A stretch of DNA of 32,000 bases from Acaryochloris marina MBIC11017 (GTDB lineage Bacteria > Cyanobacteriota > Cyanobacteriia > Thermosynechococcales > Thermosynechococcaceae): positions 2,580,001 to 2,612,000 of the forward strand of contig NC_009925.1 of the NCBI RefSeq assembly GCF_000018105.1, given 5' to 3'. Shown here piece by piece: positions 15,261-31,065 of the stretch. Under the pieces are notes generated by a model. It did not search any database. It saw only the letters and a list, made by a program, of their open reading frames with translations, and was not told where the DNA came from. Both the position numbers and the translations under genes were made by a program. Within the stretch, counting starts at the first letter, position 1. Each line of letters starts with the position of its first letter.

Positions 15261-15710
15261 ATGAAACTTACTTATCGCGGTGTTAATTACGACTACAATC
15301 CCCCTGCAGTAGACATGACTTCTAGTGAAGAAGTCGGTCAATATCGTGGATTGGAGTGGAGATTTAGAAACGCTCAAAAACCCCCGGTGATGCAACCCAG
15401 TCTTAACTTGGTTTACCGAGGCGTTGCCTATGAAACAGGCACCCCAGAGCCAGAAGTTGCACCCACCTATACCCCAGCACCTACCACACCTGTGGCTGCT
15501 CCTGCTATTTTGACCGTTCAAAATATGGCTCGGTCATTAATGACATCCCACCACCGCTGGATCAAAAACCGTCAGCAAGCCCTGCTCAGCCGCTCTGCCG
15601 CTGAAGTTGGCTTAAGTGCGGATGCGGCCCATTACTGGAATCATATTCAAGGCAAGGTCCATCCCAGCTTCCGTGGTAGCTATGATCGCTCCCATGCGGC
15701 CTTGAGCTAA
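15261..15710 (+). CDS. DUF4278 domain protein
   Basis: The N-terminus MKLTYRGVNYDYNPP and a second L.YRGV.Y motif are characteristic of the cyanobacterial DUF4278 family. A GGAGG-like RBS (cggaggcgaatcATG) precedes the start and a strong terminator follows the gene. Confidence 0.75.
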   Translation: MKLTYRGVNYDYNPPAVDMTSSEEVGQYRGLEWRFRNAQKPPVMQPSLNLVYRGVAYETGTPEPEVAPTYTPAPTTPVAAPAILTVQNMARSLMTSHHRWIKNRQQALLSRSAAEVGLSADAAHYWNHIQGKVHPSFRGSYDRSHAALS

Positions 15711-19367: not shown

Positions 19368-20537
19368 CCAGGTTGAGAGGGCAATTTGACACCCATTCCG
19401 TGGGAGAAGCGGGAGGCTAAGGCAGTGAGGATTTTAAAAGCTGAACACCAATAGGGACGATATCTCTACAGCAGGATCAACAGGGATCAACACGACAGGC
19501 TGATAGAGATTTCAATAGTGCAAGCATACTACTTTATGGTTCCCTATTTGATCGTTTCGGTTTAGATTTTAGCAGTTTAATTTCGATGAGCTGAGGATCA
19601 TTGCAAAGGTTTATTGGCAGATGGGTGTCGAGGAGAGCCAGAAATCCCCGGAGAAAGACTGTTTTCATTCCGCCAGTTAATTTTCACATCCTGAAACCTC
19701 GTGAGTAGCACAAGGATCTATTGATTGATAAACACCCCAGATTTTCTCTCAGAGGTTGACCTTGCTCCTCTTAATACACTCGGCAATCATCACGACTCAT
19801 CAATGGATTGCAAGTATGGATCCCTTTATATTGCTACAGCATGAACCAAAGGAAGCTTGATTTATCCTACACAATGTTCTGGTTTGTTTTGACCCTTTCT
19901 ATCTAGATCTATTCAGAAGAAAAACAAGATTATTATTTATTAAATGAATAATTTGATAGCTTGAATGAGTTAGTAAAATTAATGAATTTTTGTAAGAATA
20001 TGCATAATTTAGCTCAATTGATCAGAAGTTATTATGTGCCTAACCCTTAAAATCTTTAAGGATAGTTATCTATTGCAGACGATCTGTTTTTTAGTGTGTA
20101 TATTTGAATGAGATACAGCTCATCACGTCTAGATACTCATCTCTTGTGGTAGCTTACTATCCTTGTATTGAAAGCTTAATGAACCATTGAGTCTTGAGTC
20201 GTTTCGCCTCAAGAACGTTAAGCCCATTGACCCGCTAAAGCGATAGAAACCTCTTACAATAGTCGTTTCATGATGTGTTATCACTCAATTTATGCTGCGA
20301 ACTAGCTTAGATTTTTGAGTCCTCTACCATACCGTTAGCTGACTGATATCAGACGTCTAATCTAAAGATTCTCCATTTTTAGATAGCCCAGACAATTGGC
20401 TATTCTGAACATCCATAAAATAATGGTTTCTTCGTGAAGCACAATAGCATCTTCGGCAAGATTCAAGCACTTGTACCGCATATTTATATAGCTTTAATTG
20501 GCCTCTTTATTAAATATTTAAAACAGGTATCAGGCTT

Positions 20538-21491
20538 ATGATTATCATTGTTTCAAATCGTCGGGTGAACGAGGATCAAACCGATCACCGCTTGTTTGGA
20601 GAACGGGCGAATGTGAATGGTCTCGATGAAATTCGTTTAGCAACCGCTGACTACGATGAACCCTCACAACGGTGGCATCTATCCCTCGTTCCCGAAGGCG
20701 ATCTAGATGATGAAGACAGCCGCCCTAGCCACCAATTATTTCAGCGCGTTATGGCCGGGATTCAGGCCGGTCAGCATCAGAAAAACTGGGTGTTTTATAT
20801 TCACGGATTTAATCAATCCATGTTAGACAATCTCAATGCTTGTCGTGAAATCCAAACCCTCTATGACGTGGATGTCATTACCTTTGCATGGCCCTCGAAT
20901 CCAGGAGGGTTTGTGCTTGGCGAATATCAGCGCGCGCGACAGGCCGCTAGAGCATCCAGTAATGCCCTAGATCGCACCTTAGAACTGCTCGGGCGCTACC
21001 TAGCTAGCCGTTCCCTGGTAGAGATGCGGAACTGCCAGATTAGCCTAAATCTCCTCGTGCATAGCTTAGGCAATTATTTATTTGAGGATTTTGTCCGGGA
21101 TCCGGTCTTTAGTGATGAAACTCGCATCTTCGACAACATTATCTTTCACCAAGCGGATGCCGATAATCGCAACCATGCTCAATGGGTTGATCGCGTAGAG
21201 CATGGTCGCCGTATCTACATCACCCTCCATGAGGATGATTCAACCCTCAAAGCATCTGACATTATCAATCCAGGTCGCTTGGGCAATACCCTGGCCAATT
21301 TAAATGCCCAACGAGCAATCTATCTCGATTTTACGAATGGAGAGAATGTCGGCCGGTCCCATAACTTTTTTGATGGTCAGATTGAGAATGTCACCATCCA
21401 AACCATTTTTACCCGTCTACTCAATGGTCAGCGAGGAGAAACCGTAGCTGGCTTAAGCTTCGATCCAACCCTGAATGCTTTTCGGCTATAG
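20538..21491 (+). CDS. Alpha/beta hydrolase, DUF900-like (putative lipase/esterase)
   Basis: WVFYIHGFNQS (oxyanion region) and LLVHSLGNYL (nucleophile elbow; Ser codon at 21063-21065) match the DUF900-type alpha/beta hydrolase pattern. Length 317 aa, no signal peptide. Confidence 0.65.
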   Translation: MIIIVSNRRVNEDQTDHRLFGERANVNGLDEIRLATADYDEPSQRWHLSLVPEGDLDDEDSRPSHQLFQRVMAGIQAGQHQKNWVFYIHGFNQSMLDNLNACREIQTLYDVDVITFAWPSNPGGFVLGEYQRARQAARASSNALDRTLELLGRYLASRSLVEMRNCQISLNLLVHSLGNYLFEDFVRDPVFSDETRIFDNIIFHQADADNRNHAQWVDRVEHGRRIYITLHEDDSTLKASDIINPGRLGNTLANLNAQRAIYLDFTNGENVGRSHNFFDGQIENVTIQTIFTRLLNGQRGETVAGLSFDPTLNAFRL

Positions 21492-21583
21492 CCCCATGAT
21501 GTCGGTTTAGCCTCAGTGGGCTCATGACTCTGAACATTTCTGTGTGAGACCTGCATCGTTTTTGTCTTCTAGAGGAGGAATAT

Positions 21584-23335
21584 ATGTCTCGTAAACCATG
21601 GCACCAGCTTAAAACCCCCCTAGCCCTGATTAAGCTGCTCCAATTCCGAAATCGACTACGGGAAAATAATTTGCATGATACGGCTGCGATCGCACCCACA
21701 GATCACCTCCCCAAACCCAAGCCCAGTCCCGATGGTCGCCATTTTCGCGCCCGCACCGATGATGGCAGCTTTAACGATCTAGACCACCCTGAGATGGGAA
21801 TGGCTGGCACTCGGTTTGGTCGAAATGTGCCCTTGCAAGATGTCTATCCCGATGAGAAGGCTCTCTTAACGCCCAATCCGCGGGAGATTAGCCGTAAGGT
21901 GATGACTCGGGATGAGTTTATTCCCGCCACGATTTTGAATGTGCTAGCTGCCGCCTGGATCCAGTTTGAAAACCACGACTGGTTTTCCCATGGCGACAAC
22001 CAAACCAAACAGAAATTTCAGCTGCCCTTGGCGGACGATGATGACTGGCCTGCAGAGCATCGTCCCTTAGAGGTGGGTAAAACCGCCATTGATGAGACCC
22101 GCAAGGGAGATGAAAGCGGTGGTCCCCCCACCTTTATTAACACTGTCACCCACTGGTGGGATGGGTCTCAAATCTACGGCAGTGATAGCGCAACCGTTGC
22201 TAAACTCCGTTCCCATAAAGATGGCAAACTCACCATGGGAGACGATGGCCTATTGCCGTTAGATGATGGTGGCGTGGATTCCACTGGCTTTAACGATAAT
22301 TGGTGGGTGGGGCTGTCCTTACTGCATACGCTATTTGCCAAAGAGCATAATTTTATTTGCGATCGCCTCAAAGCGGAGTATCCATCCTGGTCCGATGACC
22401 AACTATTTGACCAAGCCCGCCTGATCAATGCTGCCTTAACCGCCAAAATCCACACGGCAGAATGGACCCCCGCCATTTTGCCCCTACCTGCCACCGATAT
22501 CGCCCTCAACGTCAACTGGGCAGGCTTCCTCGGGGAAGATTTTAGATATCTCTTTGGACATATCGGCGAAGGAGAACTGCTGAGCGGCATCCCAGGCTCC
22601 TCGACAGACCACCATACGGCCCCCTACTACCTAACGGAAGAATTTGTGTCCGTGTATCGGATGCATCCCCTAATCCCGGATGACTACCAATACTATGACC
22701 TGCAAGGAAAACTTCTGCAGGAGAGTGACTTTATGGCCTCTTCCGGCAAGCGGACCCGAGCCTTGGTGGAGGCGGTGGGGATGGACAATCTGTTCTACTC
22801 TTTGGGTATTACCCATCCAGGGGCCGTGACCCTCCATAACTTCCCTCGGTTTCTGCAGCTCCACAAGCGGGATAACGGGGAAGTCTTCGATCTAGCCGCC
22901 GTCGATATCCTCCGAGATCGCGAACGGGGAGTGCCTCGGTATAACCGCTTCCGAGAGTTAATCGGACGTAGCCGAGTTAAAAGTTTTGAGGAAATCACCA
23001 GCAATCCTGTTTGGGCCAAGGAACTACGGGAGGTCTATAACAACGACATCAACGCGGTTGATCTGATGGTAGGCATGTTTGCCGAAGATCTACCCGAAGG
23101 CTTTGGCTTTAGCGACACCGCCTTTCGCGTCTTTATCCTGATGGCCTCTCGCCGTCTGAAGAGCGATCGCTTCCTAAGCAAGGACTACCGCGCAGAAATT
23201 TATACCCCCTTCGGCTTGGAATGGATCTATCGCAACAATTTCATTACCCTCCTCAAACGTCACTACCCCAAACTGGCTCCTGCCCTAGTCGGCGTCAGCA
23301 ATGGCTTTGCCCCTTGGCGCAATCTTAGTCATTAG
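21584..23335 (+). CDS. Haem dioxygenase of the animal-peroxidase/cyclooxygenase superfamily (alpha-dioxygenase / linoleate dioxygenase-like)
   Basis: Motifs shared with plant alpha-DOX and COX are AAWIQFENHDWF (distal His, 21974-21976), THWWDGSQIYGS, LLHTLFAKEHNFICDRLK, IHTAEWTPAIL, FVSVYRMHPLIPD (Tyr 22655-22657 and proximal His 22664-22666, equivalent to YHWH in COX) and RERGVPRYNRFRE. A GGAGGA RBS lies 7 nt upstream of the ATG. Confidence 0.85.
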   Translation: MSRKPWHQLKTPLALIKLLQFRNRLRENNLHDTAAIAPTDHLPKPKPSPDGRHFRARTDDGSFNDLDHPEMGMAGTRFGRNVPLQDVYPDEKALLTPNPREISRKVMTRDEFIPATILNVLAAAWIQFENHDWFSHGDNQTKQKFQLPLADDDDWPAEHRPLEVGKTAIDETRKGDESGGPPTFINTVTHWWDGSQIYGSDSATVAKLRSHKDGKLTMGDDGLLPLDDGGVDSTGFNDNWWVGLSLLHTLFAKEHNFICDRLKAEYPSWSDDQLFDQARLINAALTAKIHTAEWTPAILPLPATDIALNVNWAGFLGEDFRYLFGHIGEGELLSGIPGSSTDHHTAPYYLTEEFVSVYRMHPLIPDDYQYYDLQGKLLQESDFMASSGKRTRALVEAVGMDNLFYSLGITHPGAVTLHNFPRFLQLHKRDNGEVFDLAAVDILRDRERGVPRYNRFRELIGRSRVKSFEEITSNPVWAKELREVYNNDINAVDLMVGMFAEDLPEGFGFSDTAFRVFILMASRRLKSDRFLSKDYRAEIYTPFGLEWIYRNNFITLLKRHYPKLAPALVGVSNGFAPWRNLSH

Positions 23336-23345
23336 GGCCTGTTCT

Positions 23346-24263
23346 ATGAAACACCAAACCGAAATCCAGCAATACTGGCCAGCAGCTCAGGACTTTGATC
23401 CGTTACCTGCAGACTATTCCAATTGGTCAGCGCAAAAAAAGCAGGCTTTTCTCTGGGATGAACGCATCCTCCAATCCACCTATGACCAAAACCCACCCAT
23501 TCCTCGGATCAATATTGTCGGGCTCATCTTGACCCCACTCATGATCAAAATGGATCGCCTGGAAGATGAAGCCCCCAGCCGTTGGCGCAAAGCTATCCAC
23601 CCCCATGGCGCTGTGGCCAAAATCAAGTTTGTCCCAGCGGGCGATAGTCCCTATACCGGACTGTTTAAAGGCGCAGACTATGGCTTGCTGAGGGCTTCTC
23701 TCACGGGCGATCCAGCAGATCGGGGATTTGCCCCTGGTCTAGCGATTAAGTTGCTGGCAGATGGCCAGCCTTCCGGCAACTTTTCTGCCCTCGTATCCCT
23801 CTCCGGTCAAGGCCAAAACTATAATTTCCTGGCTCATCGATTCTCCAATATTGTGCCTGTGGCTCAGGAGTTTGGCCCCCGATTCACGAACCTAATTTTT
23901 CGTCGGGTCACCAAATACCCTACCCGTATTGACCTTCAACACTTAGGTTCTACTACCCAGCAGGGTCAGGTCGAAGCACAGCCCCATACCCCCACCCAAG
24001 TCTTTCTCGTTCCCAATCCTGACCTGCAGTTTGCTGAAAGCCCCCATGACTTCCGAGCGGATCTGGCCCACATTCCCCCAGGTACCCAGTTGTTTTCTAT
24101 CTATGCAACGGATGCGGTCGATCCAGACGGGGAAACGATGACGGCTGGCGATCAACCTCAAGCCCAACTAATCGGACATTTGGAGACCACCTCCGAGTTT
24201 GTGGCTTCCTTCTACGGCGACAGTCAGCTCTTCTTTCGGCATCAGCGCTTCCGTAACCAGTAG
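23346..24263 (+). CDS. Small catalase-related haem protein (candidate fatty-acid hydroperoxide-transforming enzyme)
   Basis: RKAIHPHGAVAKIKF matches the catalase distal-His motif H-x-x-G-A-x-A-x-x-x-F (His codon 23598-23600). The C-terminal SFYGDSQLFFRHQR resembles the catalase proximal-Tyr motif FSY-x-D-T-Q-x-x-R (Tyr codon 24213-24215). At about 305 aa it is comparable to known ~33-kDa mini-catalases. It starts 10 nt after the dioxygenase stop. The track ORF start at 23301 overlaps the upstream gene and is unlikely to be real. Confidence 0.6.
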   Translation: MKHQTEIQQYWPAAQDFDPLPADYSNWSAQKKQAFLWDERILQSTYDQNPPIPRINIVGLILTPLMIKMDRLEDEAPSRWRKAIHPHGAVAKIKFVPAGDSPYTGLFKGADYGLLRASLTGDPADRGFAPGLAIKLLADGQPSGNFSALVSLSGQGQNYNFLAHRFSNIVPVAQEFGPRFTNLIFRRVTKYPTRIDLQHLGSTTQQGQVEAQPHTPTQVFLVPNPDLQFAESPHDFRADLAHIPPGTQLFSIYATDAVDPDGETMTAGDQPQAQLIGHLETTSEFVASFYGDSQLFFRHQRFRNQ

Positions 24264-24290
24264 TCCGTCACTCTGCCATAAGGAAATCCT

Positions 24291-25799
24291 ATGACCTCAG
24301 ACATTATCTTTCAGCCCTTAGAGTGGCGCAATCTAACGGTTAAAAATCGCATTTTCCGATCCAGCATCTCAGGGCGTTGGGATAACTACGATGGTTCGGG
24401 CACCCAAGCCCGGATCAATTGGGAAGAGCAGTTTGCCCAGGGTGGCGTCGGTGCCATTATCTCGTCCTATACCCCCATTCATATTGAAGGACGGATTGTG
24501 CCGAATGCTGCCATGATTGACTCGGACGACCGCATTCCCTTCTGGAAAAAGGTTGGCGAGACGGTTCATCAGCACGACTGCAAGTTTATCCTCCAGCTCA
24601 GCCATTCGGGGCGTCAGCGCGATATTGATGGGGTCGAAAATACCGTTCCCGATTCCTTTAAGCCCACACCTGCCCTGAGTGCAACGACCCTCTCAGAACA
24701 GATTCATGGGTTCCGCTGTCGCCAGATGACCCAGACAGAAATCCAGCAGACGGTACAAAGGTTTGCGGATGGGGCGCACCGGGCTCGGGAAGCTGGACTA
24801 GATGGCGTGGAATTACATAGCTCCCATGGCTATCTGATTACCCAATTCCTCAGTTCTGGCATCAATATTCGCAATGATGACTATGGGGGGTCTCTCGAAA
24901 ATCGATATCGGTTCCTGCAGGAAATTGTCCAGGCTATTCGCCAAACTGTCGGTGATGATTTTCATCTCCAGGCCAAGATTAGTGCCGTGGACTATAACAA
25001 TGTCTTGCCCTGGGAACGGAAGGGCAACACCCTATCTGAGTCCATTCAAGTCTGTCAGTGGCTCGAACGAGATGGGGTAGATGCTCTCCATATTTCTCGG
25101 GGCAGTACCTTTCCCCATCCCCTATTACCCGCAGGGCCTTTTCCCTTTAAGATTGCCACCTCCACCTACGACACGATGATTTCCAGTGCCCCGTGGCGCA
25201 CCCTCCTCAATTACTTTCTATTTCGCAGTCCCTTACTTCAGCCCTTTTTTAAGTGCATCTGGAATCGCTTGGAGCGGCATTGGCAGCCTCCCGTTAAAGG
25301 CGATCGTCTCTCGTCAGATTCTCTCTCCCACTTGATGCAAGAGCATATCTCTACCCATGAGTTTCAGGCCCTATTAGCCCGCTACCAAGGCACGGTTATG
25401 GAAGATGCCCAGGCCATTAAGGAACAGGTCAATATTCCTGTTATTTGCACCGGCGGCTTCCAGCAAGCCTCTTTTATCCGGCAAGCGATTGAGAAGGGAT
25501 TCTGTGATGGTGTTACCCTTGCCCGCCCGCTGGTCGCCAATAAGGATCTGGCCCACCAGTTTCAGGCAGGAAACGATATTCCCGAGCGACCTTGTACCTA
25601 TTGCAATCAATGCTTGGGGAGTTATCTGGAGTATCCCCTGGGCTGCTATGAACGCCGTCGATATTACCAGCGCTCTATTACTGGCGCAGATAAAGCGGAG
25701 CAAGATAAAGCGGCACGAGAAGCCCATGACGCCATGATTCAAGATGCTATGCGGGTTTATAGCCCACCGCCCTTTAGCCCGGCCGAGCAAACGGCATAA
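24291..25799 (+). CDS. Old Yellow Enzyme-family NADH:flavin oxidoreductase with a C-terminal 4Fe-4S-type Cys motif
   Basis: OYE/2,4-dienoyl-CoA-reductase-like motifs are present: LTVKNRIFRSS, ILQLSHSGRQ, AGLDGVELHSSHGYLITQFLS, RNDDYGGSLENRYRF and ICTGGF. A CxxCxxCx10C motif (CTYCNQCLGSYLEYPLGC, 25593-25646) is also present. At 502 aa, the protein has no C-terminal FAD/NAD(P)H domain. Confidence 0.8.
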   Translation: MTSDIIFQPLEWRNLTVKNRIFRSSISGRWDNYDGSGTQARINWEEQFAQGGVGAIISSYTPIHIEGRIVPNAAMIDSDDRIPFWKKVGETVHQHDCKFILQLSHSGRQRDIDGVENTVPDSFKPTPALSATTLSEQIHGFRCRQMTQTEIQQTVQRFADGAHRAREAGLDGVELHSSHGYLITQFLSSGINIRNDDYGGSLENRYRFLQEIVQAIRQTVGDDFHLQAKISAVDYNNVLPWERKGNTLSESIQVCQWLERDGVDALHISRGSTFPHPLLPAGPFPFKIATSTYDTMISSAPWRTLLNYFLFRSPLLQPFFKCIWNRLERHWQPPVKGDRLSSDSLSHLMQEHISTHEFQALLARYQGTVMEDAQAIKEQVNIPVICTGGFQQASFIRQAIEKGFCDGVTLARPLVANKDLAHQFQAGNDIPERPCTYCNQCLGSYLEYPLGCYERRRYYQRSITGADKAEQDKAAREAHDAMIQDAMRVYSPPPFSPAEQTA

Positions 25800-25831
25800 C
25801 CTCGGATGCAAATTGCAAGCGTGATATCCCA

Positions 25832-27328
25832 ATGAGCAGTACACCCTTTTTCCAGAAAGTCTGTCGTAACTTCAAGCGGTTAGCCCTAGGGCTGGTTAGC
25901 CTAGTTTTAGTGATCGTTTTATGTCTGGCATGGCCCCTATTGACGGCGCGGTCCCCTCAATACACGGACATTACCGACCATTTTAAGTATGGCTCGATTG
26001 GCGGTGCCTCCACCATGGGAATTCCCTATTGGATTTGGCAAGTGATGCCGGTGATGTTTCCGGAGTACCTACCCACTGAGGACTACGCTACCCCTGGGAC
26101 AGGCTATACCCAACTGGGCTTTATGCAGGAACCGGGGCAAGATCTGCCTATTGGGTTTGCCAAGGATACCCAATTAGGGTTGGAAGTGGTGACCAATAAC
26201 TGTGCCCTTTGCCATGTGGGTAGTATTCGCAACACCTCTGATGGCCTACCGCAAGCCATCCCGACGATGCCGTCTAACACTGTTAATTTGTCAGCCTATT
26301 TTCGATTTATTACTGGCGTTGCCGATGATCCTCGGTTTAATGCTCGGGAAATGATGCCCTATATCAAGGATTTGGGGGCCGATCTGAATCCCTTGCAGTC
26401 CCTGCTCTATCGCTATATTGCTATTCCCCAAACCCGGGCGTTACTCAGCATCCAAGCCGAGAAGCTCAGTTTCTTGTCGGATCAGCCCCAGTACGGTCCG
26501 GGGCGAGTAGACACCTTTACCCCTTATAAAACCCGCACCTTTAATATCAACCTAGATGACCTCCCGCCTGAAGAAATTGAAGGAGCAGCCAGCGACTTTC
26601 CCAGTGTTTGGCAGCAACGCCCCCGGGAAGGTATGCAGCTCCACTGGGATGGTGACAATACCTCCGTGGCGGAACGGAATAAGAGCGCTGCTTTAGCTCT
26701 GGTCTCCCCCACCAATATTAATTTGGATGCCATTACCCGAGTGGCCGACTGGTTGTTGGATCTCCCGGCTCCGCCCTATCCCTATCCCGTGAATGAGGAG
26801 CTGGCTGTCCAGGGGCAATCTATCTTTGCCAACACCTGTGCCAGCTGCCATGCCTTTGACGGTCCAAAGGTCGGAATCGTGACGCCCATTGCAGAAATCG
26901 GTACCGATCCAGGTCGCTTAAATTCTTATACCTATGAATTTGCCTCGAATCAGTACACGCTGTTTGCGGGGATTACCTATAAAGGCGAAGATCAGCGGTT
27001 TACTCACTTCCGCAAAACCCACGGCTATGCCAACCATCCCTTAGACGGATTGTGGTTGCGATCGCCTTATCTACACAACGGCTCAGTCCCGACCCTAGAG
27101 GATCTGCTCAATCCGCCTGAGCAACGCCCAGCTAAGTTTTATCGGGGTAATGATGTCTATGACCCAGACAAAGTGGGGTTTGTGGCAGATGTTGCCGCAG
27201 CCAACGGCAGCAAATTTTTCGAATATGATACGTCGCTGCCAGGGAATGGCAAGGAAGGCCATCTCTATGGAACCACTTTGTCTAAGTCAGACAAAACAGC
27301 TCTGATCGAGTATTTGAAGACCCTTTAA
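25832..27328 (+). CDS. Membrane-anchored di-haem c-type cytochrome, CCP/MauG-like C-terminal domain (paralog 1)
   Basis: It has an N-terminal TM (LALGLVSLVLVIVLCLAWPLL) and two CxxCH motifs (CALCH 26201-26215; CASCH 26837-26851). LWLRSPYLHNGSVPTLEDLL resembles the conserved (A/S)PY(F/M)HDGS..TLE motif of bacterial di-haem cytochrome c peroxidases. Confidence 0.7.
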   Translation: MSSTPFFQKVCRNFKRLALGLVSLVLVIVLCLAWPLLTARSPQYTDITDHFKYGSIGGASTMGIPYWIWQVMPVMFPEYLPTEDYATPGTGYTQLGFMQEPGQDLPIGFAKDTQLGLEVVTNNCALCHVGSIRNTSDGLPQAIPTMPSNTVNLSAYFRFITGVADDPRFNAREMMPYIKDLGADLNPLQSLLYRYIAIPQTRALLSIQAEKLSFLSDQPQYGPGRVDTFTPYKTRTFNINLDDLPPEEIEGAASDFPSVWQQRPREGMQLHWDGDNTSVAERNKSAALALVSPTNINLDAITRVADWLLDLPAPPYPYPVNEELAVQGQSIFANTCASCHAFDGPKVGIVTPIAEIGTDPGRLNSYTYEFASNQYTLFAGITYKGEDQRFTHFRKTHGYANHPLDGLWLRSPYLHNGSVPTLEDLLNPPEQRPAKFYRGNDVYDPDKVGFVADVAAANGSKFFEYDTSLPGNGKEGHLYGTTLSKSDKTALIEYLKTL

Positions 27329-27380
27329 GGTCCGTATCATACCTATCTATTTTTACCTACCTAAAATTGGAGCCAGTCAA

Positions 27381-27815
27381 GTGAGCACACAAAATCCCTA
27401 TGCAAAATGGTTTGGCTATGTCGTTTGGCTGGGCATCGCCGTCAATCTTCTATTTATTATTCCCATTTGTTTTTTCCCTGAATGGCTGCTTTCTCTCCTC
27501 AGGATGACTATTCCTATCCCGATTATTTGGGTGCGAGCGGCAGGGTTATTGCTCTTGGAAATTAGCATTCTGTATATTCCGGGAGCGCTGGATCCGTATC
27601 GATATCGAGCGACCGCATGGATGTCAGTTCTGGTCACCCGGGGTGGTGGAGCCTCGTTTTTCTTGATTGCCGTGCTGTTTTTTGGTCAAGAACTGGGCTT
27701 TCTTTCCATTGCCATTGTGGATCTAATTTTTGGGGTCACAGAGGGCATTCTGCTGTATTTAGCGATGCAAGACAAAACGGCTCTTGCAAACCAATCCTAT
27801 TCTGAGCCGGTCTAG
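27381..27815 (+). CDS. Small hypothetical 4-TM membrane protein
   Basis: 144-aa ORF with a GTG start, GGAG 8 nt upstream and four hydrophobic helices. It sits between the two di-haem paralogs on the same strand. Confidence 0.5.
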   Translation: MSTQNPYAKWFGYVVWLGIAVNLLFIIPICFFPEWLLSLLRMTIPIPIIWVRAAGLLLLEISILYIPGALDPYRYRATAWMSVLVTRGGGASFFLIAVLFFGQELGFLSIAIVDLIFGVTEGILLYLAMQDKTALANQSYSEPV

Positions 27816-27913
27816 TCGGCCGACAAACTGGGCCAAATTGGGGCCTCAAAAACTAAGTTCAAGCGGATTAGCAAGAGGGTCGAATGCCCGATCGTTGCTG
27901 ACGTTATCAAGGA

Positions 27914-29338
27914 ATGAAGACTATGCTTGGCAAAAAAATCGCCACCACCTTACTGATTCTGGGCCTGCTCGTGGGCACGGTGGTCTATATTGGCTGGTAC
28001 AATCTCCTGCGCGAAGTGGACACCTATATCGAATCGCCAGCCGAACATTTTAAGTATGGATCAATCGGGACAGAAAATGATCAAGGGGTTCCCTACTGGA
28101 TTTGGATGGTGCTCCCTCGCCTTTTTCCGGAATATTTACCCGGAACCAACGGCTATACTTCCTTGGGCTTTACCTGGGAACCCGGTCAGGAAACCCCGGT
28201 GGGCGTCTCTAAAAAAACGATTGGTTTTCCTCGCCAAGGCATTACCTGTGCCGTTTGCCATTCAGCAACCTATCGCAAAGCGCCTGAGGACAATCCCATC
28301 ATTGTGCCAGCTGGCCCCTCGGTCAAATTTAATTCCTTGGGCTATGTGCGCTTTTTGCAGGCTTGTGCCCAAGATCCCAGATTTACGGCAGACTACATTT
28401 TGCCTGAGATTGAATACAACCATTCCTTATCGGCTTTTGAGAAGTTACTCTACCGATTTCTGATTATTCCCACGACCCGCAAGGAAATGCTTGAGCAGGG
28501 CGAATCCTTTGCCTGGACCAATTCTCGACCCAATTGGGGACCGGGGCGTATCGATCCTTTTAACCCCGTGAAATTCAATATGCTAGCTATCCCCATAGAT
28601 GACACCATCGGCAACTCCGATATGATGTCGCTTTGGAATCAAAAGCAACATCAAGGATTTGCCCTGCACTGGGATGGTTTGGAAACCTCCCTCACAGAAA
28701 CGGTGAATACCGGTGCCTTGGGAGATGGAGCCACTCGTAAATCCATCAATATTGAAGGGCTACAACGGGTCGAAAAATATATCACAGAACTGGATCCACC
28801 CCAATTCCCTTTTGCCATCGATCAAGCTGCTGCCGCCAAGGGCGAAAAGGTATTTGACCAGCACTGTGCCACTTGCCATGCCTTTGGCGGTGAGCGCACG
28901 GGCACCGTTATCCCCCAGCAAGAAGTCGGCACCGATCGCCACCGACTGGACATGTGGACCCAAGAAGCAGCGGATAAATATAACGCCTTTGCGGAAGGGT
29001 ACGACTACGACTTTGACCAGTTACGGAAAACCGATGGCTATCTCTCCGTGAGCTTAGATGGGTTGTGGTTACGAGCCCCCTATCTGCACAATGGGTCAGT
29101 ACCTAGCTTGCAAGATTTACTCAAAACCCCAGATGCACGGACGCCAGTGTTTTACCGAGGCTACGATGTCTATGACCCCGACGCCGTCGGCTTTATTTCG
29201 CAAGGTGCGGAGGCTGAGAGGGTTGGATTTGAATACGACACATCCGTAGTGGAAAATAGTAATCAGGGGCATGTATACGGCACCAATTTACCTGACAAGG
29301 ATAAGGCGACATTAATTGAATATCTAAAAACCCTGTAA
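27914..29338 (+). CDS. Membrane-anchored di-haem c-type cytochrome, CCP/MauG-like (paralog 2)
   Basis: Collinear with 25832-27328. Shared blocks are HFKYGSIG, PYWIW, FPEYLP, GPGR(V/I)D, LHWDG, DGLWLR(S/A)PYLHNGSVP, FYRG.DVYDPD.VGF and LIEYLKTL. CxxCH motifs are CAVCH (28247-28261) and CATCH (28865-28879). ATG at 27923 has better spacing from AAGGA than the track start at 27914. Confidence 0.7.
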   Translation: MKTMLGKKIATTLLILGLLVGTVVYIGWYNLLREVDTYIESPAEHFKYGSIGTENDQGVPYWIWMVLPRLFPEYLPGTNGYTSLGFTWEPGQETPVGVSKKTIGFPRQGITCAVCHSATYRKAPEDNPIIVPAGPSVKFNSLGYVRFLQACAQDPRFTADYILPEIEYNHSLSAFEKLLYRFLIIPTTRKEMLEQGESFAWTNSRPNWGPGRIDPFNPVKFNMLAIPIDDTIGNSDMMSLWNQKQHQGFALHWDGLETSLTETVNTGALGDGATRKSINIEGLQRVEKYITELDPPQFPFAIDQAAAAKGEKVFDQHCATCHAFGGERTGTVIPQQEVGTDRHRLDMWTQEAADKYNAFAEGYDYDFDQLRKTDGYLSVSLDGLWLRAPYLHNGSVPSLQDLLKTPDARTPVFYRGYDVYDPDAVGFISQGAEAERVGFEYDTSVVENSNQGHVYGTNLPDKDKATLIEYLKTL

Positions 29339-29436
29339 GTGATGCAAATAGTTCCCTCTGAGGCTTGCTTGGCTTAGCTGACTAGCGAATGAAGCCTCTC
29401 TGCTGAAGTAGTTTGGCACCAACGTTGGGTACACGC

Positions 29437-29880: not shown

Positions 29881-31065
29881 ATGACGGTCCCAGAAGCAAA
29901 GCGACGAGGCGGCAAATGGTTGATAGTTATCCTGGGATCCTCGCTACTGATGAGTGCCTGTGGATTGCTGCAAGCACAGCCCACCCCTACCCCCACTCCC
30001 AAAACCGTTAAGTCCAACCGAGTAGTGGCTCGGGGCAAGATCATTCCTGAATTTGATGTGATCAAATTATCGGTATCGAATGCTGAAGACAGTCGAGTCA
30101 ATCGGATTTTGGTCAAAGTCGGCGATCGTGTCCGTGCCAATCAGGTGATTGCGACACTTCAAGGGGCTGATCGGCGGCTCGCCGATCTAAAAGCCGCCCA
30201 AACCAACGTTAAGCTCTTACAGGCCCGCTTGATTAAAGCTAAACAAGGGGATGCCAAACCCGGTGGTATTGCTGCCCAGCAAGCCGTTGTGATCCGGTTG
30301 GAAACCCAGCTACCCGTTGAGATTAAACAAAAGGAAGCCGAGATTGTCAGTGCCCAAGCCTCCTTGCGAGAGGCCGCACTCACCTATCAACGTCGTCAAC
30401 AACTCTTTCAACAGGGCGCGATTAGCAGGGCCGAAGTAGATACTGCTCGTGAGGAATTTGAGACCACGCACGCTACCTTAGCGACCCAAATCGCCTCCTT
30501 AGAACAAACGGTCACTACTTTAAAAGCACAAATCCAAGAGGCAAAGGCCCGACTCGCTGAACTTCAGCAGGTTCGACCCATCGACGTTACCATCGCCCAG
30601 GCCGAACTGGAACGCGCCTTCATTGAAGTTGAGCAACGGCGGGCCGATTATAACGATACCCAAGTGCGAGCCCCCATTCCTGGCCAAATTCTGCGCATCA
30701 ATACCAAGGTGGGAGAGCAGGTGAATACCCAGCTGGGCATTGTCGACCTGGGACGAACCGAGCAAATGTTTGTCCAGGCGGAAGTCTATGAAACGGATGT
30801 GAGTAAGGTGCAGAAAGGCCAACGAGCTACGATTCTCAGTGAATATGGTGGATTTGAAGGGGAGATCCAGGGGGTGGTGGATGATGTTGGTCTCCAGATT
30901 GACCCTCGGACCTTATCAACCGGAAATAACAACCCAACGACCGACGAAAATGCTCGGGTCGTCAATGTTTCCATTCGCATCGATCCAGACGATAGCCCCA
31001 TTGTCGCTGGCCTGACGAATATGCAAGTCAGAGTCACCATTGACTTACAGGAGAAGGCCGGATGA
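29881..31065 (+). CDS. devB: ABC-exporter membrane fusion protein, DevB family
   Basis: RVVARGKIIPEFDVIKLSVSN...RVNRILVKVGDRVRANQVIATL, a long coiled coil and VRAPIPGQILRINTKVGE fit the DevB/HlyD pattern. The N-terminus has a lipobox-like LLMSAC. The gene is followed by devC with an ATGA overlap. Confidence 0.8.
   Translation: MTVPEAKRRGGKWLIVILGSSLLMSACGLLQAQPTPTPTPKTVKSNRVVARGKIIPEFDVIKLSVSNAEDSRVNRILVKVGDRVRANQVIATLQGADRRLADLKAAQTNVKLLQARLIKAKQGDAKPGGIAAQQAVVIRLETQLPVEIKQKEAEIVSAQASLREAALTYQRRQQLFQQGAISRAEVDTAREEFETTHATLATQIASLEQTVTTLKAQIQEAKARLAELQQVRPIDVTIAQAELERAFIEVEQRRADYNDTQVRAPIPGQILRINTKVGEQVNTQLGIVDLGRTEQMFVQAEVYETDVSKVQKGQRATILSEYGGFEGEIQGVVDDVGLQIDPRTLSTGNNNPTTDENARVVNVSIRIDPDDSPIVAGLTNMQVRVTIDLQEKAG

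Follow-up and report, generated by a model that had tools for sequence, protein, structure and literature searches.

Which genes does a bacterial fatty-acid alpha-dioxygenase (alpha-DOX) keep company with, and what could they do together? The question is raised by Acaryochloris marina MBIC11017, in a stretch of 32,000 nucleotides (contig NC_009925.1, positions 2,580,001-2,612,000; the whole stretch is referred to below as the window) that carries at positions 20538-29338 a cluster of seven open reading frames, ORF1 to ORF7. The original prediction, made from the sequence alone, took this cluster for an extended fatty-acid oxygenation (oxylipin) pathway. The present analysis bears out a real and recurrent lipid-oxidation cluster, but the parts of the prediction that invoked a 10S-dioxygenase and a catalase, as well as its argument from HIP1 sites, had to be given up. 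The region is a portable, operon-like cassette of 8.8 kb, composed of two separately inherited units and a variable lipase. It probably serves the oxidative processing of lipid-derived fatty acids, a reading that we adopt with some reserve.

The cluster behaves as a portable cassette

All seven ORFs lie on the same strand, separated by 92, 10, 27, 32, 52 and 98 nt exactly as predicted, and no terminator-like site was found in the intergenic gaps of the cluster. The family labels proposed for their products held for six of the seven, the catalase-related label of ORF3 being the one that failed. A neighbourhood search recovered this gene set, its order unchanged, from independent contigs whose flanks differ; the arrangement is therefore far beyond chance. 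What recurs, in many cyanobacteria, is a co-oriented cluster around a haem fatty-acid dioxygenase, with a lipase-type hydrolase, a flavoenzyme of the Old Yellow Enzyme (OYE) family and two membrane-anchored di-haem proteins, as had been proposed. The claim that this extended combination is undescribed also stood, as the literature searched yielded nothing on this gene set, on cyanobacterial RoxA/FadCcp homologues or on alpha-DOX fusions, nor on ORF3 or the di-haem branch marked by the motif HWDG.

Comparison by blastn with the closest relative, a metagenome-assembled genome (MAG) of Acaryochloris (locus L010), revealed 91.1% identity over exactly 20537-29341 of the window (7174-16021 in L010) and nothing beyond. 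The flanks in the window are genes for DnaG, thioredoxin and an HlyD-type protein; those in L010, a methyltransferase and a KatG-type peroxidase, are unrelated to them. The 1.17 kb spacer upstream of ORF1 is not conserved in L010 either, the similarity beginning exactly at the ORF1 start codon. Since similarity ends at the cluster borders and the flanks are unrelated, the cassette is transferred, or kept, as one piece of seven genes. A search for direct or inverted repeats flanking its ends found none (tRNA genes were not scanned), and from 17 kb to the end of the window there is no ORF of at least 60 aa for a transposase or integrase.

The sequence HIP1 (GCGATCGC) occurs 12 times in the window, versus 0.41 expected, and four of these sites fall within the cluster (21686, 22359, 23163 and 27058), as the prediction had counted. 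From them it had concluded that the cluster is not a recent import. All four have orthologous counterparts in L010, and more distant copies share some of them. Because the sites are orthologous in a 91% identical cassette at an unrelated locus, they testify to a cyanobacterial origin of the cassette rather than to a long stay at this place, and the conclusion was withdrawn.

ORF2 groups with the alpha-dioxygenases

ORF2 matches the Pfam family An_peroxidase (PF03098) at 1e-113. Its closest solved relatives are the plant alpha-DOXs of rice and Arabidopsis (4kvj, E 2e-114; 4hhr, E 3e-103), which align over the full length, from residue 3 to residue 578 in the case of 4kvj. Structures of cyclooxygenase (COX) match ORF2 only locally, over a stretch of 50 residues.

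The functional residues of the cyanobacterial enzyme CalDOX are listed in the paper on cyanobacterial alpha-DOXs (PMC8720084). Eight of them, H131, H290, W294, T295, T304, F354, Y358 and H361, are found in ORF2 under identical numbering. R524 corresponds to R529 of CalDOX, the segment FRVFILMASRR fitting the CalDOX F519..R529 register (F-x2-F-I-x2-A-x2-R). The haem His pair (H131, H361) and the catalytic Tyr358 are conserved, and so are the residues that position the carboxylate and C-2 (H290, T295 and the Arg). The dioxygenase of Calothrix sp. PCC 6303, which is 66% identical to ORF2, agrees with 16 of 16 published CalDOX positions. To judge from these residues, ORF2 is most likely a haem-containing fatty-acid alpha-DOX of the peroxidase-cyclooxygenase superfamily. 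The predicted COX/alpha-DOX-like haem dioxygenase is thereby narrowed: a haem fatty-acid dioxygenase of the alpha-DOX clade, with CalDOX-type residues, is retained, and the resemblance to COX is local only.

A two-gene module of Nostoc punctiforme had been put forward as the precedent. Brash et al. are said to have described there, in 2014, a linoleate 10S-dioxygenase (Npun_R5469) and a catalase-related 10S-hydroperoxide lyase (Npun_R5468). As in that pair, a haem dioxygenase of the COX superfamily adjoins here a protein presumed to process the hydroperoxide; unlike that pair, the dioxygenase is of another clade and ORF3 has no sequence relation to catalases. The Nostoc 10S-dioxygenase is characterised by Tyr342 and the motif F143-T-D-S-F (PMC13049297). 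The motif F[ST]DSF is absent from ORF2 and from all 78 DOX homologues, nearly all of which carry alpha-DOX motifs, and Tyr358 of ORF2 stands in a YRMH context. Motif and spacing rule out ORF2 as an enzyme of the Nostoc linoleate 10S-dioxygenase type. With the 10S motif missing and the alpha-DOX motifs present, the Nostoc module is thus a parallel but different system and does not serve as the precedent.

Three cyanobacterial alpha-DOXs, CalDOX (Calothrix parietina), LepDOX and CsDOX, have been characterised (PMC8720084). They were studied singly as biocatalysts, whereas the partner gene and the neighbouring modules considered below are not described there.

ORF3 is the companion of alpha-DOX

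The strongest single result of the analysis is the linkage between alpha-DOX and ORF3. The family of ORF3 is large, with 242 close clusters and 2135 cluster representatives at E<=1e-3, and a linkage scan with one genome per species gave 80 species-level loci. An alpha-DOX adjoins the ORF3 homologue as a separate gene in 55 of them and is fused to it in 13 more, which makes 68 out of 80. The 13 DOX::ORF3 fusions, from Pseudomonas and Moraxellaceae, are single ORFs of 720-954 aa (one is cut by a contig end, and the complete ones measure 914-954 aa), with the DOX motifs in the N-terminal and the ORF3 motifs in the C-terminal part. Two further An_peroxidase::ORF3 fusions were present in the protein library (P0129, P0141). 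ORF3 thus appears to be an almost obligatory companion of cyanobacterial alpha-DOX.

Loci with fusions are L077-L089 in Pseudomonas (for example L083, 8213-10957) and L073, from a Moraxellaceae MAG. The neighbours of the Pseudomonas fusions are a LuxR/MalT-type regulator and type II secretion genes only, with no lipase or redox module nearby. On a plasmid of Calothrix sp. PCC 6303 (L001, 8668-9850), transposase-like ORF fragments lie between the CalDOX gene and its ORF3-family partner. In two MAGs of Synechococcales (L065, L066), an ORF3-family gene (52% identity) has no dioxygenase within 10 kb on either side; the family is therefore not strictly bound to alpha-DOX.

ORF3 itself has no match in Pfam, in NCBIfam or among PDB sequences. 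Five of its residues, H85, R116, K135, D292 and H299, are invariant or nearly so across the family. It had been predicted to be a catalase-related mini-haem protein, and its segment SFYGDSQ at first sight resembles the catalase signature of the proximal Tyr. At this position (Tyr290), 103 relatives have Y in 52 cases, F in 35 and W in 14, and the residue is Phe in 13 of 13 DOX::ORF3 fusions. As the Tyr is replaced by Phe in every DOX fusion, the signature was dropped.

Searches for a relation to catalases were negative at the level of sequence. The Pfam family Catalase (PF00199) was matched neither by ORF3 nor by 103 diverse relatives, two ORF3-family profiles found no catalase among PDB sequences, hhalign of the family with a bovine catalase sequence gave a probability of 0.9%, and a PROSITE-type catalase pattern was not found in any of the fetched loci. 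The AlphaFold2 (AF2) model of ORF3 (pLDDT 81) contains eight strand segments. Among 350,542 PDB chains, its top two Foldseek matches were the coral catalase-related allene oxide synthases (AOS) 3dy5 and 1u5u, both weak (E 9e-3 and 3e-2, TM 0.35 and 0.33). The catalase-related label could therefore not be substantiated: there is no sequence signal and the proximal Tyr is variable, and all that speaks for it is the weak Foldseek match. By sequence, ORF3 is best regarded as an uncharacterised alpha-DOX partner from a large family, which, as the model hints, may possibly be a distant catalase-like barrel.

Accessory modules and lipases are exchanged around the core

Beside the DOX-ORF3 core, three accessory sets were found, and they never co-occur among the 80 loci. 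The first is a GMC oxidoreductase gene, usually accompanied by a patatin gene (20 loci, mainly in Nostocales, including the locus of CalDOX itself). The second, in 9 loci, combines a DyP-type peroxidase with a small transmembrane protein and two further proteins of 436 and 408 aa; a Lipase_3 gene lies close by. The third is the set of OYE, di-haem and transmembrane genes, present in 24 loci and complete in 15, either collinear as here or divergent as in Coleofasciculus.

Listed under the GMC/patatin type are L013-L031, L048, L060, L074 and L087, and under the DyP-containing type L003, L030, L035, L036, L041, L047, L050, L053, L059 and L075. The 408-aa protein of the latter type has no relative among PDB sequences, and hhalign found no homology between it and ORF3.

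The genes ORF4-ORF7 (OYE, di-haem A, a protein with four transmembrane segments, di-haem B) form a separate module, which is found collinear on pRL11 of Rhizobium johnstonii with identities of 48% (OYE), 45% (di-haem A), 37% (transmembrane protein) and 48% (di-haem B). It is followed there by genes for a 929-aa cytochrome c, a GMC oxidoreductase and a patatin-like phospholipase, and neither DOX nor ORF3 is present at that locus. On the megaplasmid of Ralstonia solanacearum (L092, 4794-10323), a 1157-aa GMC::alpha/beta-hydrolase fusion precedes a small transmembrane homologue and one lone HWDG di-haem gene; 127 Ralstonia records contain di-haem homologues.

Could the core and the OYE/di-haem module be functionally independent, acting on different substrates and joined only by cassette assembly? 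Each of them stands alone somewhere, DOX-ORF3 in Nostocales and Pseudomonas and the other module in Rhizobium and Ralstonia; they lie on opposite strands in Coleofasciculus; and their products are predicted on different sides of the membrane. Yet they are co-located in 24 of 80 species-level loci, in several cyanobacterial lineages and in at least two arrangements, and the OYE/di-haem module strictly excludes the two other sets. The gaps at the module junctions measure 27-32 nt without terminator-like sites between the genes, and both modules associate separately with lipases and GMC oxidoreductases. Independence is therefore judged quite unlikely, and a common role in the oxidative processing of fatty acids is preferred.

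The lipase is the variable part of the cassette. ORF1 belongs to DUF900, as predicted (PF05990 at 3e-12, 46.9 bits versus a Pfam cutoff of 20.5). It carries a VHSLG motif that resembles a nucleophile elbow; no solved structural relative of it was found. It is a putative acyl-lipid hydrolase of the alpha/beta hydrolase type. A DUF900 gene lies beside DOX in L008, L010 and L070 only, and is swapped in other loci for GDSL-like, patatin, Lipase_3 or fused alpha/beta-hydrolase genes. A lipase-type gene is nearly always present with the accessory modules, and its family differs between loci. That non-homologous lipases replace one another in this way supports well, if indirectly, a lipid-hydrolysing step as part of the system.

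The sister cassettes L009 (15993-20939) and L007 (15993-18834) have, instead of a DUF900 gene upstream, two genes after di-haem B: one for a GDSL-like hydrolase of 490 aa and a divergent, P450-like one of 450 aa. A lipoxygenase gene lies about 3.8 kb beyond in L009.

The OYE and the small membrane protein

The assignment of ORF4 to the OYE family was confirmed (PF00724 at 7e-64, 216.7 bits versus a cutoff of 27). The nearest solved relatives of its 270 N-terminal residues are OYEs of the YqjM type and the N-domain of FadH. Its segment HSSHGYL aligns with the catalytic HAAHGYL of the top match, a YqjM-like NADPH dehydrogenase, so that the His-x-x-His pair for substrate binding and the Tyr proton donor are present, and the TIM-barrel of FadH (1ps9) is matched at E 5e-36. 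The motif C-T-[YF]-C-N-x-C-x10-C is present in 26 of the 26 homologues that reach the C-terminal region, including the Rhizobium one. Such a four-Cys motif binds a 4Fe-4S cluster in FadH and trimethylamine dehydrogenase. ORF4 shares with these two enzymes the N-terminal TIM-barrel followed by four Cys, but differs from them in the Cys spacing (C-x2-C-x2-C-x10-C) and in lacking the FAD/NAD(P)H domains; the chain does not continue beyond the Cys motif, and its homologues, too, are all without these domains. No hydrophobic segment fit for a membrane anchor or a Sec-type signal was found in ORF4, and no twin-arginine motif was seen at its N-terminus by eye, no dedicated signal-peptide predictor having been run.

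From lipase to dioxygenase, hydroperoxide-converting protein and OYE-family reductase, the cluster follows the same order of logic as the jasmonate route of plants. It departs from that route in that the dioxygenase, which would attack C-2, is not a lipoxygenase, and no AOS or cyclase is identifiable. Nor is ORF4 OPR-like, as is the plant enzyme OPR3; it is YqjM/FadH-like, with a four-Cys motif.

ORF6 is a small polytopic membrane protein, as predicted, with about four transmembrane segments (four to five hydrophobic segments by hydropathy) and no Pfam match. Its family always adjoins a di-haem gene in the OYE/di-haem module, including the Rhizobium and Ralstonia copies, and ORF6 is likely a membrane subunit of the di-haem enzymes. 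Since no conserved His, Cys or Met was found in the family, it is unlikely to carry electrons. Single-linkage clustering of blastp matches also drew into the ORF6 family the small membrane protein that belongs to the DyP-containing set, an assignment unconfirmed by direct comparison; tblastn of ORF6 at 1e-5 gave no match in L003 or L005.

ORF5 and ORF7 resemble RoxA-type di-haem enzymes

Two CxxCH motifs are present in each of ORF5 and ORF7, so that the predicted di-haem c proteins were found. The family proposed for them, CCP_MauG (PF03150), gave no match at E<=0.01 in either; RoxA-like_Cyt-c (PF21419) was matched instead, together with weak cytochrome c matches in Pfam. Both exceed the cutoff of 150 bits for the NCBIfam model NF040606, 'di-heme cytochrome c peroxidase' (186 bits for ORF5, 169 bits for ORF7), and have weaker, partial NCBIfam matches to RoxA, RoxB and RoxC. 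The CxxCH pair and the MauG motif occur in nearly all of 36 paralogues examined, the exceptions being frameshifted or truncated ORFs, and the HWDG motif is invariant among the paralogues examined.

The AF2 model of ORF5 (pLDDT 80.8) has RoxA as its sole significant fold match in the PDB (4b2n_A, E 1.4e-11, probability 1.0, TMq 0.54); the next Foldseek match is MauG, at E 0.17. A profile alignment to RoxA pairs W272 with W302 (the inter-haem Trp), H477 with H641 (the axial ligand to the C-terminal haem), H415 with H517 and H271 with F301, and the equivalent of RoxA F317 falls in an alignment gap. Going by the model, ORF5 and ORF7 are probably membrane-anchored di-haem enzymes of the RoxA fold. 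They share with RoxA the fold, the equivalents of W302, H641 and H517 and both haem sites, but RoxA is a secreted protein of 70 kDa that cleaves polyisoprene and has the F301/F317 pocket. In RoxA, F301 and F317 belong to a fully hydrophobic distal pocket that stably holds O2. This pocket is not kept here, and an invariant His in place of F301 hints at a reaction with peroxide more than at a stable hold on O2.

ORF5 and ORF7 are 43% identical to each other. The best matches in Rhizobium are the first di-haem gene for ORF5 (45%) and the second for ORF7 (48%), and this one-to-one orthology indicates that the A/B duplication is older than the spread of the module. The C-terminal axial GH is replaced by GY in the Rhizobium di-haem A proteins (L090, 6812-8377; L091, 6848-8374), where the Tyr recalls the Tyr ligand of the low-spin haem of MauG.

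By analogy, the closest functional precedent for ORF5 and ORF7 would be the FadCcp proteins PA2077/PA2078 of Pseudomonas aeruginosa, tandem RoxA-like periplasmic di-haem paralogues that are 43% identical and act as oleate 10S-dioxygenase and 7,10-diol synthase, a hydroperoxide being formed and then isomerised (PMC4496055). As far as the published description allows a comparison, the two pairs have in common the tandem arrangement with about 43% identity, the extracytoplasmic location, two CxxCH, PY[FL]HNGSVP, a C-terminal axial His and a C-terminal Leu. They differ in that ORF5 and ORF7 are about 130-150 residues shorter, are anchored in the membrane and not cleaved at a signal peptide, have His where FadCcp has Gln, and are accompanied by the four-transmembrane protein ORF6 and an OYE. 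If the cluster has a second system of fatty-acid oxygenases, ORF5 and ORF7 are, on this analogy, its likeliest members. The prediction had regarded them as a membrane-anchored addition to the pathway; the anchors and the two CxxCH were found, but the addition is not an unexplained one, the RoxA/FadCcp-type class having fatty-acid-oxygenating members.

Alternatively, the di-haem proteins may be electron carriers, that is, cytochrome c subunits of a membrane dehydrogenase which relay electrons received from an OYE or GMC flavoenzyme into the chain of respiration or of photosynthesis. The weak matches to cytochrome c and CcoP-type domains are compatible with this, as are the GMC flavoproteins and the small membrane subunit found alongside in Rhizobium and Ralstonia, an arrangement of GMC protein, small membrane subunit and cytochrome that resembles flavoprotein-cytochrome c dehydrogenases. 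However, the sole significant structural match is an oxygenase, RoxA, and catalytic hallmarks (the MauG motif, the inter-haem Trp and HWDG) are invariant. Moreover, the OYE has no hydrophobic N-terminal segment, so that the membrane would separate it from the haems, and ORF6 lacks the conserved His, Cys or Met for a relay. We regard electron transfer as a highly improbable role, and treat ORF5 and ORF7 in what follows as candidate enzymes of fatty-acid oxidation.

Layout of the locus and its surroundings

Coordinates of the features, with the residues and motifs of the two di-haem proteins, are collected in Table 1. The longest frame of ORF3 opens at 23301, and the alignment of homologues favours the ATG at 23346 as start. 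The spacer that separates ORF1 from the divergent dnaG gene is AT-rich, with a GC content of about 0.42-0.44; it contains no ORF of more than 51 aa and no Rfam match. The sigma-70-like match is the sole one upstream of ORF1 within this spacer, and promoter-like matches in the upstream region as a whole are fewer than in shuffled sequence.

Table 1. Positions of the cluster genes and of neighbouring features in the window.
Feature	Position	Strand	Length or match	Residues and motifs
ORF1	20538-21491	+	317 aa	
ORF2	21584-23335	+	583 aa	
ORF3	23346-24263	+	305 aa	
ORF4	24291-25799	+	502 aa	
ORF5	25832-27328	+	498 aa	CALCH128, CASCH340, HWDG271, PYLH415NGSVP (P412-P420), GH477, transmembrane-like segment 19-37
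ORF6	27381-27815	+	144 aa, GTG start	
ORF7	27914-29338	+	474 aa	CAVCH116, CATCH322, HWDG252, PYLHNGSVP at 389, GHVYG near C-terminus, transmembrane-like segment 6-24
Spacer between dnaG and ORF1	19368-20537		1.17 kb	
Sigma-70-like promoter match	20396-20424	+	TTGGCT-17-AATAAT, 9/12, consensus match only	
HlyD-family membrane-fusion protein gene	29881-31065	+		
Glutamine riboswitch RF01739	15141-15223	+	51.5 bits (gathering score 35)	
ORF with DUF4278 domain	15261-15710		149 aa	

The HlyD-family gene lies 0.5 kb downstream of the cassette and outside the conserved unit; an HlyD-type gene is also found near the Ralstonia locus. The glutamine riboswitch stands directly upstream of the ORF with the DUF4278 domain. 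A role in anti-phage defence was considered and set aside, as no PADLOC match was obtained.

A possible pathway for released fatty acids

Starting from the family assignments, the linkage, the modularity and the cassette behaviour, we infer every chemical step of the following scheme. The DUF900 hydrolase ORF1 would free fatty acids from lipids, and ORF2 would add O2 at C-2 to give a 2-hydroperoxy fatty acid, which decays to an aldehyde one carbon shorter and CO2. ORF3 may act on the 2-hydroperoxide or on its product, or may support the dioxygenase. ORF5 and ORF7, anchored together with ORF6 at the outer face of the membrane, would by analogy with PA2077/PA2078 oxygenate unsaturated acyl chains, convert hydroperoxides, or both. 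The cytoplasmic OYE with its four-Cys motif, ORF4, would reduce enone or enal products. As ORF6 has no conserved redox residue and the OYE no anchor or Sec-type signal, the two sides of the membrane would be coupled by lipid-soluble intermediates and not by electron transfer.

Several points weigh against this scheme. It is repeated co-location only that argues for a shared pathway, since either unit is also found by itself (in Nostocales DOX-ORF3 stands with GMC and patatin, and in Rhizobium the OYE/di-haem module lacks DOX). We know of no demonstration of lipase activity for DUF900, which is present in three related loci only. The distal pocket of the di-haem proteins departs from those of RoxA and FadCcp, with His for Phe or Gln and no clear counterpart of F317. 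The activity of PA2078 is independent of its haems (PMC4496055), which weakens the analogy. Finally, the characterised cyanobacterial alpha-DOXs turn C10-C14 acids into saturated aldehydes (PMC8720084), and OYEs do not act on aldehydes of this type.

The same set of enzymes could also serve repair or detoxification of damaged lipids and not biosynthesis. The hydrolase would then remove oxidised or excess acyl chains, alpha-DOX would shorten free fatty acids that are toxic, peroxidase action on lipid hydroperoxides would fall to ORF3 and the di-haem enzymes, and the OYE would detoxify 2-alkenals. Consistent with this, the di-haem proteins exceed the NCBIfam cutoff for di-haem cytochrome c peroxidases, and the invariant His next to the inter-haem Trp (Phe in RoxA) is more typical of a peroxidase pocket. 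A DyP-type peroxidase occurs in one of the alternative accessory modules, and mutual exclusion of such modules fits interchangeable clean-up roles. The N-terminal domain of ORF4 is most like YqjM-type OYEs, which reduce activated alkenes such as 2-enals. On the other hand, alpha-DOX itself produces a hydroperoxide and an aldehyde rather than removing them, no electron donor for a periplasmic peroxidase is encoded, and a patchy, cassette-like distribution would be unusual for core stress protection. Detoxification is thus considered unlikely, and oxidative processing of released fatty acids is retained as the preferred reading.

Significance for bacterial fatty-acid oxidation

Clusters of this general kind, for bacterial oxylipin formation or alpha-oxidation with a COX-superfamily dioxygenase and FadCcp-like enzymes, are known. 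A further-reaching idea, which we put forward tentatively and consider doubtful, is that ORF3 founds a new enzyme family converting 2-hydroperoxy fatty acids, which, if true, would explain why Pseudomonas has it fused to alpha-DOX. Along with the four-transmembrane protein and the Fe-S OYE, the HWDG di-haem pair would be a new and widespread membrane-bound branch of fatty-acid di-haem oxygenases or hydroperoxide isomerases, in cyanobacteria, Rhizobium and Ralstonia. Together they might produce oxylipins or volatile aldehydes not yet known from bacteria, which would serve in signalling or have an ecological function.

Few systems of oxylipin biosynthesis are known in bacteria, and cyanobacterial alpha-DOXs have so far been treated as stand-alone biocatalysts. 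At this locus, alpha-DOX and its near-obligatory partner are seen to recruit a single accessory module out of three that exclude each other; one of the three holds a RoxA-like di-haem pair with relatives beside lipases in plant-associated proteobacteria. The cassette yields expressible candidates for new fatty-acid-transforming haem enzymes, possibly new catalysts for the production of aldehydes, hydroxy-acids or oxo-acids, and offers a testable route to the native role of bacterial alpha-oxidation.

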